From the NCBI GenBank assembly GCA_049903315.1, contig JBNGBT010000020.1:1-15710 (forward strand): DNA of 15,710 nt. The letters are read 5' to 3'. The translations under genes and the position numbers were made by a program. Below the pieces are notes generated by a model that was not told the origin of the DNA, did no database searches, and was given only the letters and a program-made list of their open reading frames with translations. The stretch is from Candidatus Cloacimonadota bacterium. GTDB lineage: Bacteria > Cloacimonadota > Cloacimonadia > JGIOTU-2. Below are positions 522 through 15,126 of this stretch, in pieces (the first letter of the stretch is position 1; every line of letters starts with the position of its first letter).

Positions 522-1823
522 CTATCTCTCATGATTATTTTTATATTTATAAATTCCACTTATCCCCATTAACATTGTAAGTATTATCCAACCATCAATT
601 GAATACGCGTTTGCGAACATACCCCATATAAAGAATGAGATTAATGGACAAACCATTCCAAATGTTATAAACATAAACTCGTCGCTTCTATTGTTAATTG
701 TTATTCTGATTTTTGTGAAAAAATATTGCTTAAAAAATACAAACAAAAAAACCATTCCTATAAAACCAAAGTTACCTAACCATACAATAAAGAAATTGTG
801 TGGAGATCTTTCATAAATTCTCCTACCAGCACTCATATAATAAATGTTGGCATTTTCAACAATATTATCCCAACTTGAATTGCCAAAACCAATTAGCGGG
901 GAAGTTTTAACAATATATTCAAATGCCAAAATCCATATGCCCCCAATTCTGGATGCAAGATTTCCCCTCAACTGATTTATACCTAAGGATTGTAAATCTC
1001 GCATATTCTTAATGGTATGAATATCTTCTGGAGTTAAAATCTTTACAGACAAGTAATAAACTAGAAATGGTAACACAAATAGTAGAAACATCCTTAGTAT
1101 ATTAATTCTAACAAAAATTAAGATTAATACTATTATTGTTAACATAATAGAAAAAATGGATGCTCGTGTTCCGTTCAGAAATACAACAATTGGTAGTATT
1201 ATGATTGTGAAAAAAAATATTATGTTGCGCTGTTTTCGGAAATGATAGATAAAAAGAGGAAATACAACTGAAAGCACACCTCCGTCCTCATTTGCATTAC
1301 CAAATAAAACTTGCGGACGGGTGATTCGAAAACCTAAAGGTAAACCGGTTCTTATGAATTGTAGCAAATATAGGATTATCATTAAAACAAATAGTATAGA
1401 TGCAAGTCGAAATATAAGAATTACATTATTTTGGTTACCGTATATCACTATTAATAATAAAAATGAGAAATACAACAAATATCTATTAACACCAATCAAT
1501 CCCTGATAATCACCGAGAATAACGGATTGAAGTACCATGTAGACAAAAAATAAAAATATTATAGTTACTAATTCTCTATATGGTTTATATTTATAAATAT
1601 ACATTCTTTTCAATGCAAGACATAAATAAGTAATCATAAGTAGAAACTGTGGAATAAAAATATCATATCGAAAACCTCTAAAAGATTCTATATAAATACT
1701 TATACCTGTAATAGAGTCAAATAGATAAATATAATTATTATATAACAAGTATATAAAATAAGATATTGTTACAAAACTAAATGTTCTGTCACTCTTATAA
1801 CTATTTTTGACAATTTGTTTCAT
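522..1823 (-). CDS. wzy: O-antigen polymerase / O-antigen ligase family membrane protein (Wzy/WaaL-like)
   Basis: 433 aa with many hydrophobic segments and very AT-rich DNA. Motifs FGNANE, GTRAS, PLIGFG and SPHN are typical of the Wzy_C family. Lies in a locus with wzx. Polymerase versus ligase cannot be settled from sequence. Confidence 0.75.
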   Translation of the reverse strand: MKQIVKNSYKSDRTFSFVTISYFIYLLYNNYIYLFDSITGISIYIESFRGFRYDIFIPQFLLMITYLCLALKRMYIYKYKPYRELVTIIFLFFVYMVLQSVILGDYQGLIGVNRYLLYFSFLLLIVIYGNQNNVILIFRLASILFVLMIILYLLQFIRTGLPLGFRITRPQVLFGNANEDGGVLSVVFPLFIYHFRKQRNIIFFFTIIILPIVVFLNGTRASIFSIMLTIIVLILIFVRINILRMFLLFVLPFLVYYLSVKILTPEDIHTIKNMRDLQSLGINQLRGNLASRIGGIWILAFEYIVKTSPLIGFGNSSWDNIVENANIYYMSAGRRIYERSPHNFFIVWLGNFGFIGMVFLFVFFKQYFFTKIRITINNRSDEFMFITFGMVCPLISFFIWGMFANAYSIDGWIILTMLMGISGIYKYKNNHER

Positions 1824-3041
1824 ATATTACAAAATATTATTATGTAATTTGTCAAGTCACTACTGTCCGGGTAAAATAATGTCATTTGTTTAATTGGCTC
1901 TCTGGCTTTTCGAATAGTCATAGGAGATAACGACAAGATATCTATCAAATTGACTCTTTCCATCATCACTTCCCGGATCATAATGCTCAACTCGGTAATC
2001 GTTTTTGACAGCTTCGTCTGGAAACTGATGTAACTCAATAGCAGATAATAGCACATCGCCACCCAGATCTGGCTCAATACTGCATTGCAACTGGATCCCA
2101 GGAAGGATTTGATCTTCAGGTTTTGCTTGACCCATTTGAAAAACAGTTCTATCTGCCAGCGATCTTTATAGATACCTGCAATGGTAATAGCGGCCAGATT
2201 CAGGTTATTGGTAATGTGCTCGTAATACTCACCCGTATCCGGTGATAAATAACCCACCAGACATATTTCCTGGGGATATTTATCTTTGTTCAAAAGTCCA
2301 GTTAACCGGATAACATCATCTTGAACGATATGTTTGTTCTTCAACGGTTTGTGCTGTCCGGTAACTTCATATGCCATGTTGCTCTTGGCACATGTTACAA
2401 AAAACACATCTCTTTGATCGAGGGAATACAACCACTTATAATCAATGTAGGCCATATCAACAGCCAGGATGCTGTCCGGTAAGAGGGCAAAATCCAGCTT
2501 CTCCTGGCTTTTAGCAACTGTGATATCATGGCGCTTGCCATTGGTCACGATCATAAAACTTGGCATCATTCCCAAATGATTCAGCAGATAATGCAGTTTG
2601 ATGGCTCCTTTTCGTTTCCTGAACTTTGCCCGGGAAAAACGGACAGACACATCTCAATGGTGGTAGAGTCCATACTGATCAGTGGATTCTTGAAACGAAA
2701 TCGATGCTTTGGTGTCATGGAGCAACAGCGGTCCAGTAGTTTGTAAAACAGCCCTTCATAGATCTGCCATGGACGCTGATTTATAGCATCAGACAGGGTA
2801 CTGCGTTTGACGCCTGTAAATCCCAGATGATACCATTTGCTATGGTGAACTTGAAGAGATGTCTCGATCTCTCTCAAACTGTCCTTACATTGATCTGGAC
2901 AACCAACAAAACGATGAACTGCTGCCAGCCAGTGAAATACTTCGTATAACGGTTCGCATTGTATTGTTTTTCAAGTTTCTCAAATTCATATCTCTGAAAA
3001 AGATTCAGAAGTTCTTCCAGTACCGGTGTAATTTTCCGCAT
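1820..3041 (-). pseudogene. IS4-family transposase, frameshifted twice (near 2888 and 2633), with stop read-through
   Basis: ATG at 3041 after GAGGAG gives MRKITPVLEELL...WQQF. A second frame carries SLREIE...RSTLSDA...DSTTI. A third carries AKFRKRKGAIKLH...D-AY...YKDRWQIELFFKWVKQNL (IS4 Y-(2)-R-(3)-E-(6)-K signature). Two single-base losses join the pieces. Confidence 0.88.
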
Positions 3042-3140
3042 GGTCTGATTCTCCTCTATTAATTACTTTTTGACCGGGATATTTTATCCCATTTTTGAGA
3101 AATTTCAGACCTAACTTTTTATTTTAACCGGACACTACAG
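1858..3140 (-). mobile_element. IS4-family insertion sequence (1283 bp), decayed
   Basis: Terminal IRs CACTACTGTCCGGGTAAAAT (1858-1877) and rc of 3121-3140 CTGTAGTGTCCGGTTAAAAT match at 16/20. Flanked by an exact 9-bp duplication TTGTCAAGT (1849-1857 and 3141-3149). Confidence 0.92.
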
Positions 3141-3320
3141 TTGTCAAGTCTTAAATGTTGGAGTAAAAAAATCTGGAAATATCTTCAAAAAGCAGTTCTA
3201 TATCAATTTATGTGTCTAACTTTTCACGTGGTTGAGTCATAATACCATCCTAATTTTTATGTAAAGGTTTTTACAGTTGGCTCAACCATCTTTTATATAG
3301 GGCTTCCTGAATAAGTCAAG

Positions 3321-4904
3321 TTAATCACTATTGGGAGAAACGCTAAAACGCCCAAATTCAGGCGATAAAACAGCTTTTTGAATTATTCGACGCAGAGCAT
3401 TGCTGATTGAAGATAATTTTGCGATGACCTGCTCCAAAAAATGAGATAAAAATGAACCTGACCAATGTTTCGCCAGATTCATGACAAAGATTACCATCGC
3501 GATCCCCGCCTGCTCTGAATGCCATATGCATGCAGCGGACAGGCAACTCTCACTTGTCGCCCTTGTCTTAGCCATTACCAGTCCCAGGCTGAATCGTCGT
3601 TTTCCGTTTCCGAACTTCCCCTCCACTTGATTCCGCTTTGCTGATTCTATTTTATTTCGTTTTCGTTCATCCGACGAGATATTTTTCTTCTGCTTTGGAC
3701 GCCCCAGCGGAGCTCCTCCATACATCTCAATATTATGTTTCTTCACCCATTTGCGGTTCTCACGATTCCAGTAAATTTTATCACCATTCACCGATGCCGG
3801 ATAACACCCAAATTTGGTCCGGTACTCTTCACAGGCACGGATCAGATCGCTGCCTTCGTTGTAGGCATTCCAACTCAGGTTATCAAGATAGACATTCCCG
3901 TCGATCACTACTGCAGATATCTTCGCTCCAAATTCTGTTCTTTTCCCAGCCTTTCCCCGGATGATTGGCCGGATATGTGGTTGTGAAATGCTCACGATCC
4001 GATCATCAATGCGATTTTCCCGGCGGTCATACATCTCCTGCTGCAGACGATAAACTTCCCGGATTATCCACAGATGACGCCAGGATTTCTTGTCAAACGG
4101 AATGGGCATGTTCTCCGACTGGTAGATGTCCAGCAGTGTGTCAATATGGGCAAGATCACGACGGACATATCCCAGCTGGTGACGAACCGCCTTACGGGTT
4201 TTGGTATAACCGGCATTCCGCTGGCGGGTGAAGGCCAGGTAACGCTTGCGGGCCTGACGACGATATGTTCTCGGTTTTTTCGGCAGAAGTCCCGGATACC
4301 AAAGCTGATCTATCAGATCTTCAGCAATCTCCCGGGCCTGGTTCAACAAGCCGACATCGGTGGGATAACGTATGTCACCGGGAGCTACTGTGGCATCGAT
4401 TATCAGCATCCCCTTGTTCTCCGGTTCAGGAGATGATGGGTTTTCTGTATTTTGATCTTTATCGGAAGAAGCTGAAGGGGGGTCTTGATCATCATGATCT
4501 GGTTGATTGATATTGGACAAAATCAGATCGTTGATTTCTTTTTTTCTTTCCATGACAAGCCGATTGCGTATCTCGACAAACAAGGATGGATCAAATACGG
4601 TCCGGGGTTCGAAGTTTTTAAAACCAAGGAAGAATTGATAATAGGGGTTTTCCCGGATATCTTCGATGACTTCCTCATCAGGCAGTTTTTTCAGATGCTT
4701 GATGATCAGTACACCAACTACCACGCGTGATGGAAGTGCTGGGGGACCCATTTTGGACTTCATGCTGCGGTTGTAAACCAGTCCGATTTCTTCCCAGGGT
4801 ATTGTTTCGGAAAGCTTGACCCAGCGGTTTTCCGGATCAAGTTTACCATCAAAGGGAAGAAAGAAGTCCAGCACGGTCTGTTTACTGTAATTGTCACGAA
4901 TCAT
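3321..4904 (-). CDS. IS5-family DDE transposase
   Basis: 527 aa. Motifs LDPENRWVKL, ENPYYQFFLG, IDATVAPGDIRYPTD, DRIVSISQPHIRPIIRGK...EFGAK, DKIY and RNQVEGKFG. Confidence 0.92.
   Translation of the reverse strand: MIRDNYSKQTVLDFFLPFDGKLDPENRWVKLSETIPWEEIGLVYNRSMKSKMGPPALPSRVVVGVLIIKHLKKLPDEEVIEDIRENPYYQFFLGFKNFEPRTVFDPSLFVEIRNRLVMERKKEINDLILSNINQPDHDDQDPPSASSDKDQNTENPSSPEPENKGMLIIDATVAPGDIRYPTDVGLLNQAREIAEDLIDQLWYPGLLPKKPRTYRRQARKRYLAFTRQRNAGYTKTRKAVRHQLGYVRRDLAHIDTLLDIYQSENMPIPFDKKSWRHLWIIREVYRLQQEMYDRRENRIDDRIVSISQPHIRPIIRGKAGKRTEFGAKISAVVIDGNVYLDNLSWNAYNEGSDLIRACEEYRTKFGCYPASVNGDKIYWNRENRKWVKKHNIEMYGGAPLGRPKQKKNISSDERKRNKIESAKRNQVEGKFGNGKRRFSLGLVMAKTRATSESCLSAACIWHSEQAGIAMVIFVMNLAKHWSGSFLSHFLEQVIAKLSSISNALRRIIQKAVLSPEFGRFSVSPNSD
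3505..3543 (-). repeat. 39-bp GC-rich hairpin insert (CCTG...CAGGCGGG on minus strand), in frame in IS5 transposase
   Basis: Deleting 3505-3543 changes ES-CLSAACIWHSEQAG-IAM to ES-W-IAM. The insert is imperfectly self-complementary. Confidence 0.75.
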
Positions 4905-5056
4905 GATAATGCTGACCTATATGTATTTCTGCAAGGGAATTGAACAGAATATGCTATATATCTTGCACATAATCTACAATAATATGCACATATATCATTG
5001 TTAATAAATATGTTGTGAATTATTCAGGAAGCCTATATATTTTTCTTTACTTTCTT

Positions 5057-13270: not shown

Positions 13271-14611
13271 TTAAATACTTTGATACTGCTGATACCACAA
13301 AAGAAACTGTTTGTATCCGTCACTGAATGTATTGTAATCAGCAGTATTAGTTTGTTTTTCTAATTTTCTGATATCAGATATTGTGCTATATACATCTCCG
13401 GATTGCATAGGCAAATACTTTTTCTTGGATTGTCTAGCTAAATTGTCTTCAATAACATTAATAAATTTAGTCAACGCAACCTTATTTCCACCGCCGATAT
13501 TATAAATTTCACTCACCGTATTCGCATGATCCTTTGGCTCAGTTTCTATTAATTCATTGATAGAAGTTACACCATCATCAATGAAGGTCATATCTCGAGA
13601 TAACTCACCATTATTGAAGACTTCAATTTCTTCACAATTTAGAATCTTTTCCGTAAACTTCCAATACGCCATATCCGGCCTTCCCCAAGGTCCATAAACC
13701 GTAAAAAACCTCAGACCAATTGTATTTATACCAAACAGATGAGAATAAGTATACGCCATTTCCTCATTGTTCTTCTTTGTAGCCGCATAGAGCGAAATTG
13801 GCTTGTCACAGCGGTCCTCTTCGGAAAATGGTAGTTTTGTATTGGCACCATAGACTGAGCTGGATGATGCATAATACAACCAGTTAATATCATTATGCCG
13901 ACAGCCCTCTAACACATTCAAAAAGCCTGTTACATTGCTTTCGATATAAGCGTGGGGATTTTCAAGACTGTAACGAACGCCTGCTTGGGCGGCAAGATGA
14001 ATGACGATGTCGAAGTGGTTATCCGAAAAGACTTGAGCCATGCCGTCTTTGTCGGCGAGGTCCATCTTTATAAAATTATAAGTGGGAAGTTCAAAGTTAA
14101 AGGTTAAAGGTGAAAGGTTGGGATCAGGATCTGAGCTTGCACTAGAACTTGAAGACTGGGCATCCGGTGTAAGGTTAAAAGTTAAAGGTGAAAGGTTGGA
14201 ATCAGTTTTATTTTCTTCTAAAGTATGAACATCTGCAGACCTGCTTTCAGCACTTTTAACTTTTCCTGGCTGCCCTCCCTGCTGGTCAGGGCCAGGCGGG
14301 AACTTTCCACTTTTAACTTTTTCCAAATCTTCGTTGAATGAATCAGTTCTAAGTTCTTCGGGTATTGTTTCAAGTGTATACTCACCGTTAAAGATAATGC
14401 TTGTAGTGTACTTACCGTATTCAATATCATCGCGCTGAATGCCGGTTTCTGCTAGACGGGCATACTTTAAGTTAACGTCGTAGTAGCCGTTGATGTTGTC
14501 CAGACCGACGACGTTGTAGCCTTCCATGAGCATACGACGAGCCAGGTGAAAGCCGATGAAGCCAGCAGTACCGGTAATCAGCACGGTTTTACGTTTGGGT
14601 GTATCAGTCAA
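13271..14611 (-). CDS. NAD-dependent epimerase (UDP-glucuronate 4-epimerase / CapI-like) with ~101-aa internal insertion
   Basis: TTG start. Motifs TGTAGFIGFH, DNINGYYDVNLK, HLAAQAGVRYS, ASSSSVYG, YAATK and LRFFTVYGPWGRPDMA. Residues ~75-175 are low-complexity and extra to the fold. Confidence 0.88.
   Translation of the reverse strand: MTDTPKRKTVLITGTAGFIGFHLARRMLMEGYNVVGLDNINGYYDVNLKYARLAETGIQRDDIEYGKYTTSIIFNGEYTLETIPEELRTDSFNEDLEKVKSGKFPPGPDQQGGQPGKVKSAESRSADVHTLEENKTDSNLSPLTFNLTPDAQSSSSSASSDPDPNLSPLTFNFELPTYNFIKMDLADKDGMAQVFSDNHFDIVIHLAAQAGVRYSLENPHAYIESNVTGFLNVLEGCRHNDINWLYYASSSSVYGANTKLPFSEEDRCDKPISLYAATKKNNEEMAYTYSHLFGINTIGLRFFTVYGPWGRPDMAYWKFTEKILNCEEIEVFNNGELSRDMTFIDDGVTSINELIETEPKDHANTVSEIYNIGGGNKVALTKFINVIEDNLARQSKKKYLPMQSGDVYSTISDIRKLEKQTNTADYNTFSDGYKQFLLWYQQYQSI
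14083..14195 (+). repeat. Two purine-rich heptamer arrays
   Basis: 14083-14117: tgggaag ttcaaag ttaaagg ttaaagg tgaaagg. 14168-14195: tgtaagg ttaaaag ttaaagg tgaaagg. Both are followed by TTGG[G/A]ATCAG and encode the repeated peptide NLSPLTFN. Confidence 0.9.
14253..14323 (-). repeat. Reverse-orientation heptamer array interrupted by a 36-bp insert
   Basis: cttttaa ctttt[14265-14300]aa ctttcca cttttaa ctttttc. Confidence 0.85.
14265..14300 (+). repeat. 36-bp GC-rich hairpin insert (CCTG...CAGGCGGG)
   Basis: CCTGGCTGCCCTCCCTGCTGGTCAGGGCCAGGCGGG, with CCTGGC/GCCAGG and CCCTG/CAGGG stems. Removal restores an unbroken 5-unit heptamer array. Confidence 0.8.
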
Positions 14612-14631
14612 AATAAAACTTCAAAGTATAG

Positions 14632-14673
14632 TTAAAAGTGAATAGTGAAAGGTGAAAATTTAAAGGTTAAAAG
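14632..14673 (+). repeat. Six-unit purine-rich heptamer array upstream of the four-helix-bundle gene
   Basis: ttaaaag tgaatag tgaaagg tgaaaat ttaaagg ttaaaag. Confidence 0.9.
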
Positions 14674-14688
14674 TTATTCAATTTTGAA

Positions 14689-14781: not shown

Positions 14782-15126
14782 GTGAAGATACAAAAGAGAA
14801 CTTACTGTTTTGCATTAGAACTACTGAAAATGGTGGATTTCCTTAAAGAGAATCGAGAGTTTGAAATTGCCAACCAATTATTGCGCTCTGGAACCAGCAT
14901 TGGGGCAAATGTACAGGAAGCTCAAGCTGCATCTTCAAGAAAGGATTTTGCACAAAAGATCAACATTGCCTTGAAAGAGAGTCGTGAAACTGTTTTCTGG
15001 TTAAATCTCTTGATTGATTCTGACAAATTGGAAAATTACCCAAATGCCAAAAGTCTTTTATCAGAATGCATATCTATTACAAATATTCTCGGTAAGATTC
15101 TTAAAACAACCAGAAGCAGAAACTAA
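14782..15126 (+). CDS. Four-helix-bundle protein (23S rRNA intervening-sequence protein / bAvd-like family)
   Basis: 114 aa, GTG start. Family signature QLLRSGTSIGANVQEAQ...SRKDF..K..IALKE.RET.FWL.LL. Confidence 0.92.
   Translation: MKIQKRTYCFALELLKMVDFLKENREFEIANQLLRSGTSIGANVQEAQAASSRKDFAQKINIALKESRETVFWLNLLIDSDKLENYPNAKSLLSECISITNILGKILKTTRSRN

Follow-up and report, generated by a model that had tools for sequence, protein, structure and literature searches.

The 15,710-nt stretch of Candidatus Cloacimonadota DNA analysed here (the window) raises the question of how 39 palindromic bases came to split a conserved codon of a transposase gene, and of whether they belong to a mobile element in its own right. 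The features that bear directly on this question are the following.

3321..4904, minus strand: IS5-family transposase, 527 aa (NF033578, 347.9 bits against a cut-off of 275)
3300..5033, no strand assigned: host insertion sequence (IS), about 1.73 kb, with 14-bp terminal inverted repeats at 3301-3314 and 5020-5033
3505..3543, minus strand: 39-bp palindromic mini-element within a Trp codon, residues 454-466 of the transposase
3535..3543, minus strand: left arm of the conserved shell, CCYGYCYGC type, from arm comparison
3514..3534, minus strand: 21-bp variable core with an imperfect inner hairpin, from folding and core searches
3505..3513, minus strand: right arm of the conserved shell, GCRGRCRGG type, from arm comparison
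3504..3545, minus strand: split target codon, with TG at 3545-3544 and G at 3504, junction TG|GA

A palindrome within a conserved tryptophan codon

A 39-base, gene-less palindrome is inserted in the conserved Trp codon of an IS5 transposase. Against the best 120 homologues the insert corresponds to an exact gap: its 13 residues occur in none of them and W stands at the site in 109 (with T in 4, M in 2, V in 2, C in 2 and one unparsed), which is the outcome that the original prediction had proposed as confirmation. Both homologues with C at the split position are the two other insert carriers described below, and among 300 stored proteins the 13-residue segment was found only in the window's protein and in one member of its own 90% cluster. 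The minus-strand sequence, the coordinates and the split of TGG after its second base are all as originally described, as is the addition of 13 codons to the window transposase with its frame kept; the boundary ambiguity, put at no more than 1 nt, is one base (G|G), and target duplication is absent. With T and C at its positions 3 and 7, the left arm is of the "crossed" subtype of the host family. The 21-base core was not found inside family arms elsewhere, and a single core match among 231 other genomes of the phylum, with 2 mismatches and no arms, was taken as chance.

The palindromic nature of the mini-element, proposed from its imperfect hairpin, was borne out, but the fold of the single copy at 3505-3543 was not above chance, with 26 of 200 shuffles equalling it (z -1.24); its minimum-energy fold also leaves a 5′ tail. 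The second window element, at 14265-14300, was similarly unexceptional against shuffles (z -0.57). The case for insertion rests on empty sites and on enrichment of the family.

The host insertion sequence

The host IS has TATATA on both flanks and is a single copy in the assembly, and a search of 40 relatives found no close copies, only three short weak matches; no relatives of the IS appeared in the viral scan. Within the transposase, the insert lies 26 residues after the invariant E428, which the family motif suggests is catalytic, and it removes a nearly invariant W where, in a structure model, a long C-terminal helix starts. Confidence in the model is low over residues 433-443 and 449-459, a weakness that need not stem from the insert, and Foldseek gave no matches at E<=0.001.

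In contigs from seawater runs, the insert was present wherever its site was covered (three runs, one possibly the source of the assembly), carrying a private substitution in one run, and it also occurs in a second assembly (P0213). No contigs without either window element were seen in 6 of 19 seawater runs, where contigs show presence and not absence. One haplotype, found in two of the runs, lacks the whole IS (3293-5034) at this place, and other IS copies in the seawater assemblies are damaged by a stop (4081) and by the insertion of one base (4476). Taken together, the empty-site haplotype, the stop and the frameshift indicate an IS that is recent at this place and decaying in the population; since sister copies carry such lesions, the open frame of the window copy need not reflect selection, and the insert's 13 residues are probably a passenger that is neutral for, or harms, an already decaying IS. 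We also observed a sibling IS in the seawater contigs that has the 5′ part in common with the host IS and diverges near 4026-4075. A frameshifted IS4-family transposase and an IS3-family transposase tail (1820-3100 and 3-410, respectively) adjoin the IS5 element within a polysaccharide gene cluster.

A second element in the window

The window holds a further copy, about 11 kb away, within an unrelated gene.

14265..14300, plus strand: second member of the family (36 bp), in frame within a tract of 7-base repeats; junction TT|AA
13271..14611, minus strand: NAD-dependent epimerase ORF, 446 aa, some 110 aa more than in its best matches, which have 332-345 aa

This second element proved real: of 25 boundary pairs, the one originally given for it leaves the host repeat with the best 7-base periodicity. 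The extra length of the epimerase ORF is explained by the in-frame insertion, rich in 7-base repeats, that hosts the element. Similar 7-base tracts lie upstream of the ORF at 14620-14680, adjoining a four-helix-bundle gene at 14782-15126.

Family pattern and distribution

Family members follow the pattern CCYGYCYG, variable core, CRGRCRGG and span 18-47 bases, with fixed arms of 8-9 bases around a core of 0-29 bases; both window copies match it, in keeping with the original view that they belong to one family. A strict search of this genome gave 5 matches and a loose one 7, against 0, 0 and 0 in three Markov controls, whereas still looser patterns yielded chance matches (48 versus 30, 45 and 43). 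Among the 7 loose matches one is likely chance and two are copies of one repeat, leaving about 5 sites per 2.96 Mb, two of them in the window, a number at odds with the original description of the element as abundant; nor is the family visible among over-represented 9-mers of this genome. One candidate, C11:43842-43882, was rejected as chance, lying in an ORF with a native-looking peptide that we take to resemble a peroxiredoxin motif.

Counting this genome and its relatives, the family occurs in 19 of 41 genomes with up to 22 copies per genome, a few of the matches, in GC-rich genomes, being equalled by a reversed-pattern control. Scanning one sixty-fourth of the genome collection returned 121 loci, from which about 78,000 stretches are estimated, chance matches included. 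The commonest cross-phylum form is 20 bases long (35 of 123 scan matches, about 26 of which are one perfect palindrome by hand count) and was found in records titled Patescibacteria, Bacteroidota, Omnitrophota, Bdellovibrionales, delta- and gammaproteobacteria, and others. Forms of 20-30 bases dominate the family, and an identical 20-mer lies in unrelated flanks across phyla and in viral contigs. At three loci (L104, L114 and L140) the copies are self-nested, a second one lying inside the first.

Two loci (L344 and L334) have one extra CCTG unit in the left arm only, which suggests that the terminal 4-base unit may slip. At three others (L054, L097 and L106) the flanks are long perfect inverted repeats starting with GTGG, like REP doublets, and the inner ends of these repeats resemble the family arms, a hint of a possible family origin. 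No Rfam match reached the gathering score in the window.

Insertion anatomy and choice of target

Within this genome, a repeat on contig C48 is without exactly the 37-bp member that is present in the same repeat on C18 and C59, with junction TG|GA and nothing duplicated. This comparison provides DNA-level proof of precise insertion. The repeat itself (C18:1-200, C48:431-601 and C59:401-526) is a multi-copy, strongly folding repeat end at contig breaks with no Rfam match, presumably resembling the non-coding end of an IS110-family element. More generally, the longest flanking direct repeat was 0-1 base at 77 of 86 sites.

Junction counts were confined to 18-21-base near-canonical forms plus the family loci. 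GC-rich genomes and viral contigs also gave long matches, which were not counted because many of them are chance. Among the resulting 163 sites, pyrimidine|purine (Y|R) junctions were found at 4 where 38.5 were expected, and G|GA junctions at 19 where 5.0 were expected. The same tendencies held for the 116 sites outside the host family and IS loci (Y|R 4 versus 28.0 expected; G|GA 10 versus 3.7), at which TG|GA itself was not enriched (1 versus 0.9 expected). An exclusion of Y|R alone is what a purine-before-cut rule acting on either single strand would give. Exceptions in this genome are the second window element (14265, TT|AA) and a copy on contig C3 (C|G).

Copies were seen, among other places, in short tandem repeats, in further small palindromes, in tRNA-like loops and within transposase genes. 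Host hairpins are at most weakly preferred (fold z-scores, p 0.12; stems of at least 6 across the junction at 7 of 86 sites versus 4 of 257), and periodic flanks were not enriched overall (5 of 86 versus 20 of 257). Copies of 20 bases at L092, L309 and L301 lie in flanks that by eye resemble tRNA D-loops or variable loops.

Reuse of one bond in related transposases

Two transposase homologues, which belong to other branches than the window transposase, carry family members at the identical TG|GA bond: a 21-base member in frame (L001:10076-10096) and a 20-base member that causes a frameshift (L002:1504-1523). The second locus has a further member, of 27 bases, at another TG|GA Trp codon. On a quick tree (45 of 121 rows, the first 370 residues, with the insert region excluded and P0013 left out), the distribution of inserts needs 3 changes, and the L002 protein stands 0.08 changes per column from insert-free sisters. 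The homologues were searched for by protein, by which frameshifting inserts early in the gene would be missed.

How many independent events these copies represent bears on the strength of the coincidence. Only one base separates the inserts of L001 and L002, which may stem from a single event, and 41 aligned columns around them are 93% identical, against 34-72% in other 60-column windows; this high local identity spans a conserved coding motif. A near-identical 21-base variant of the same type is found in four unrelated flanks on two viral contigs, and the arms of the window copy are of the subtype resident in its own bacterial family, to which the L001 and L002 arms do not belong. Given 66 G|GA-type sites in the gene, the chance that three of four events would fall on one bond is about 0.001, and about 0.045 for two of three; for the narrower TG|GA target (16 sites) the corresponding values are 0.016 and 0.19. 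A metagenome scan for more filled Trp sites yielded 9 stretches, one of which was L002 again and the rest without transposase context.

Fold register

In the RNAalifold consensus of 17 hand-picked members, the last six bases pair with left positions 5-10, and CCYG stays behind as an unpaired tail. In a covariation test, none of 500 shuffles reached the score of this 4-base-offset register, whereas 304 of 500 reached that of end-to-end pairing. Likewise, among the 12 distinct copies of one relative, collected with an unbiased pattern, 22 of 24 pairs were Watson-Crick in the offset register versus 6 of 24 end to end. The offset covariation comes from one subtype, 24 sequences that are all of the host family and that the pattern of the cross-phylum scan was unable to return, and 11 other sequences compensate end to end. 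A hairpin in offset register with a CCYG tail is a lead, not a result, drawn from covariation among sequences.

Comparison with known small elements

The closest known system is SDR1-8 of Nostoc, and the family behaves like these cyanobacterial SDRs, beside which it is set by description and not by sequence. Elhai et al. (2008) reportedly described SDRs of 21-27 nt that are nested in themselves, in heptamer tandem repeats and in minitransposons or other mobile DNA; we know of no enzyme for them. In common with SDRs, the family has small size, precise insertion, no encoded enzyme, and nesting in itself, in heptamer repeats and in mobile DNA. Extracts of the literature describe SDRs as about 20 bases long and possibly mobile (PMC2884548), show SDR5 inside HIP1 as a precise insertion at a defined bond (PMC4390886) and mention SDRs in a further source (PMC3116915). 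The two differ in that SDRs are reported from cyanobacteria, whereas this family spans many other phyla and has fixed arms around a core of 0-29 bases.

Other candidate classes share fewer traits. Rickettsia palindromic elements (RPEs), in the extracts consulted, are about 150 bp long, encode a conserved peptide and lie in ORFs in nearly half of cases (PMC10969869, PMC3733652). Like them, the family is palindromic and gene-less and can sit in frame in unrelated genes; unlike them, its members are 18-47 bp long, with differing peptides and lengths often not a multiple of three, and few lie in long ORFs (1 of 39 in relatives and 6 of 24 cross-phylum low-GC sites). REP/REPIN-RAYT systems are described, again in extract, as 20-40-bp hairpins, mostly extragenic, with a tag of 4 unpaired bases next to the stem and a proposed HUH enzyme acting in trans (PMC3733652, PMC3116915). 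The family resembles these as a mainly extragenic palindrome of 20-40 bp, but the GTAG or CGTC tag is absent, its ends being CCYG/CRGG on both sides within variable flanks and its copy number low, and no Y1 gene was found among 93 neighbouring ORFs, in contrast to REPs flanking a RAYT gene. In the part of PMC11893778 available to us, Ssn/SRM hairpin repeats are handled as single-stranded DNA across many phyla, SRMs flank a nuclease gene, and SRM mobility is a hypothesis. The family likewise consists of short hairpin repeats across many phyla, but none of the 93 ORFs at 52 sites was a cd10448 GIY-YIG gene.

For MITEs, target duplication is typical. Extracts of PMC3733652 give them 70-300 bp and terminal repeats of 15-30 bp. 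The family shares their non-coding, non-autonomous nature and inverted ends, but is too short, shows no likeness to the ends of the host IS, and lacks target-site duplication, as seen in the 0-1-base repeats at 77 of 86 sites and the exact C48 empty site. The family lacks the defining features that were tested for RPEs, tagged REPs, MITEs and SRMs. We found no description of it in the literature, in a search whose scope did not extend to most subscription journals. Four points are new here: one bond used repeatedly, an empty site within the same genome, the rule for junctions and the pairing in offset register.

How copies may move

Our best guess, tentatively held, is that precise, duplication-free insertion is made in trans by an HUH transposase (Y1, TnpA/RAYT-like) acting on a single-stranded DNA hairpin. 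This enzyme class was chosen because insertion without duplication, a one-sided rule for junctions and a hairpin with a tail all characterise IS200/IS605 and REPIN chemistry (PMC3116915 and PMC11893778, in extract); excised REPINs carry a 5′ tail, and IS200/IS605 enzymes recognise single-strand hairpins (PMC3116915, in extract). The element would be cut out or copied as a single-stranded hairpin, in which the terminal CCYG unit would serve as tail or guide, and joining would take place on one strand after a purine, with G|GA preferred. Cores would then probably lengthen as other small hairpins become nested in the loop, and copies would be expected to accumulate at tolerant sites such as IS elements, short tandem repeats and other hairpins.

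Searches for the enzyme linked none to the copies. Among 93 ORFs of at least 70 aa within 400 bases of copies at 52 sites, neither Y1 nor GIY-YIG families were present, only unrelated ones, and none of this genome's 4 Y1 matches has the arm motif within 500 bp. When 25 related genomes were compared, the number of elements correlated with Y1 count at rho 0.40 (0.26 and non-significant within the family), and one genome has 14 Y1 matches and no element. The corresponding values were rho 0.39 for GxxExxY genes and rho 0.63 for four-helix-bundle genes (TIGR02436), in a set whose members are kin and not independent.

A possible but doubtful alternative is that filled sites are copied to similar empty sites by homology, through gene conversion or homing via DNA or RNA, with no dedicated transposase, the Trp site having been reached by transfer between IS lineages followed by a change of core. 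Such copying would fit the short repeat flanks that many relatives' copies have in common (A at -1 in 20 of 37 and C at -4 in 25 of 37), as well as the one-base difference and near-identical surroundings of the L001 and L002 inserts. A recombination model is also said to have been put forward for SDRs by Elhai et al. in 2008. Yet the identical 20-mer crosses phyla and viral contigs in unrelated flanks; the near-identical 21-base variant of the L001/L002 type has four unrelated flanks on its two viral contigs; the L001/L002 identity spans a motif conserved for coding; the window copy differs in both arm subtype and core; and homology alone does not predict the depletion of Y|R junctions.

Less probable still, and in our judgement unlikely, is a different hairpin-directed small nuclease, either GIY-YIG and Ssn-like or the product of one of the four-helix-bundle or GxxExxY modules in whose repeats the element is often found, that nicks single-stranded DNA and leaves repair to patch the hairpin in. 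Ssn enzymes do cut single-stranded DNA beside their own hairpin repeats (PMC11893778, in extract), element count tracks TIGR02436, and the 7-base tract that holds the second window element is near a four-helix-bundle gene, which lies 480 bases from it. That correlation may merely count target repeats among genomes that are kin, however, and one genome with 21 four-helix-bundle matches has no element; moreover, none of the 93 neighbouring ORFs belongs to the GIY-YIG, GxxExxY or four-helix-bundle families.

In-frame copies and protein function

The original prediction went further, proposing an abundant element that adds peptides to proteins as RPEs do. Both window copies are in frame, five of six reading frames are open in each, and lengths are divisible by 3 for 30 of 39 copies in relatives, though nearly all of these lie outside genes; in-frame copies occur within IleRS, TruB and SecF genes. 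Among cross-phylum low-GC sites, 6 of 24 fall in long ORFs, comprising 3 of 4 with lengths that are multiples of three and 3 of 20 others. The proposal was nevertheless not supported, as 38 of the relatives' 39 sites are outside long ORFs and the peptides are not conserved, and selection to stay in frame so as to add peptides to working proteins appears very improbable in view of the handful of sites in 2.96 Mb, the 20-base member that frameshifts its transposase at the same Trp codon, the loss of a W kept in 109 of 120 homologues, and the stop and frameshift in sister IS copies. As for an assembly artefact or chance resemblance, the shuffle-like fold of a single copy and the chance matches to loose patterns might favour it, but the exact homologue gap, the contigs of three seawater runs together with assembly P0213, and the C48 empty site refute it, leaving it a negligible probability.

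Several further copies touch coding sequence. Those at L080:1501-1520 and L089:1501-1520 are 20 bases long and lie inside long open frames (one an FtsK gene), which implies a compensating base gain or loss near the junction. An IS630-type transposase locus (L095) has two identical 19-base members, at 1501-1519 and 1975-1993; its ORF stays open across the first of these, which we take to sit in the catalytic aspartate motif. The C3 copy in this genome (87037-87066; L375, L378-L391) is a 30-base member in a conserved leader before small, secreted-looking genes. At 14 similar places in 6 relatives the hairpin is kept in all and none is empty, and this leader copy may be old or domesticated.

Significance

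Sub-40-base mobile elements with no known enzyme have been an open question since the work on SDRs and REPs, and this locus supplies what such studies usually miss: base-exact filled and empty sites, a reused bond, a rule for junctions that can be measured, and a structure open to test, in the form of an offset hairpin ending in a 4-base tail. A more ambitious reading, which we regard as speculative and rather doubtful, is of a cross-phylum transposition system with cargo as short as 18-20 bases, in which a hairpin with a slipping 4-base CCYG tail would be pasted without duplication at a site preference that hits one IS5 bond repeatedly, making it a hyperparasite that knocks out insertion sequences and carries arbitrary small cores. 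A scarless inserter accepting variable cores would interest genome engineers. For the family itself, the evidence makes it likely that we are dealing with a very small mobile element moved by an enzyme in trans rather than with a source of useful new peptides, and such an element would account for odd loops of 6-13 residues and for frameshifts in the proteins of many uncultured phyla.
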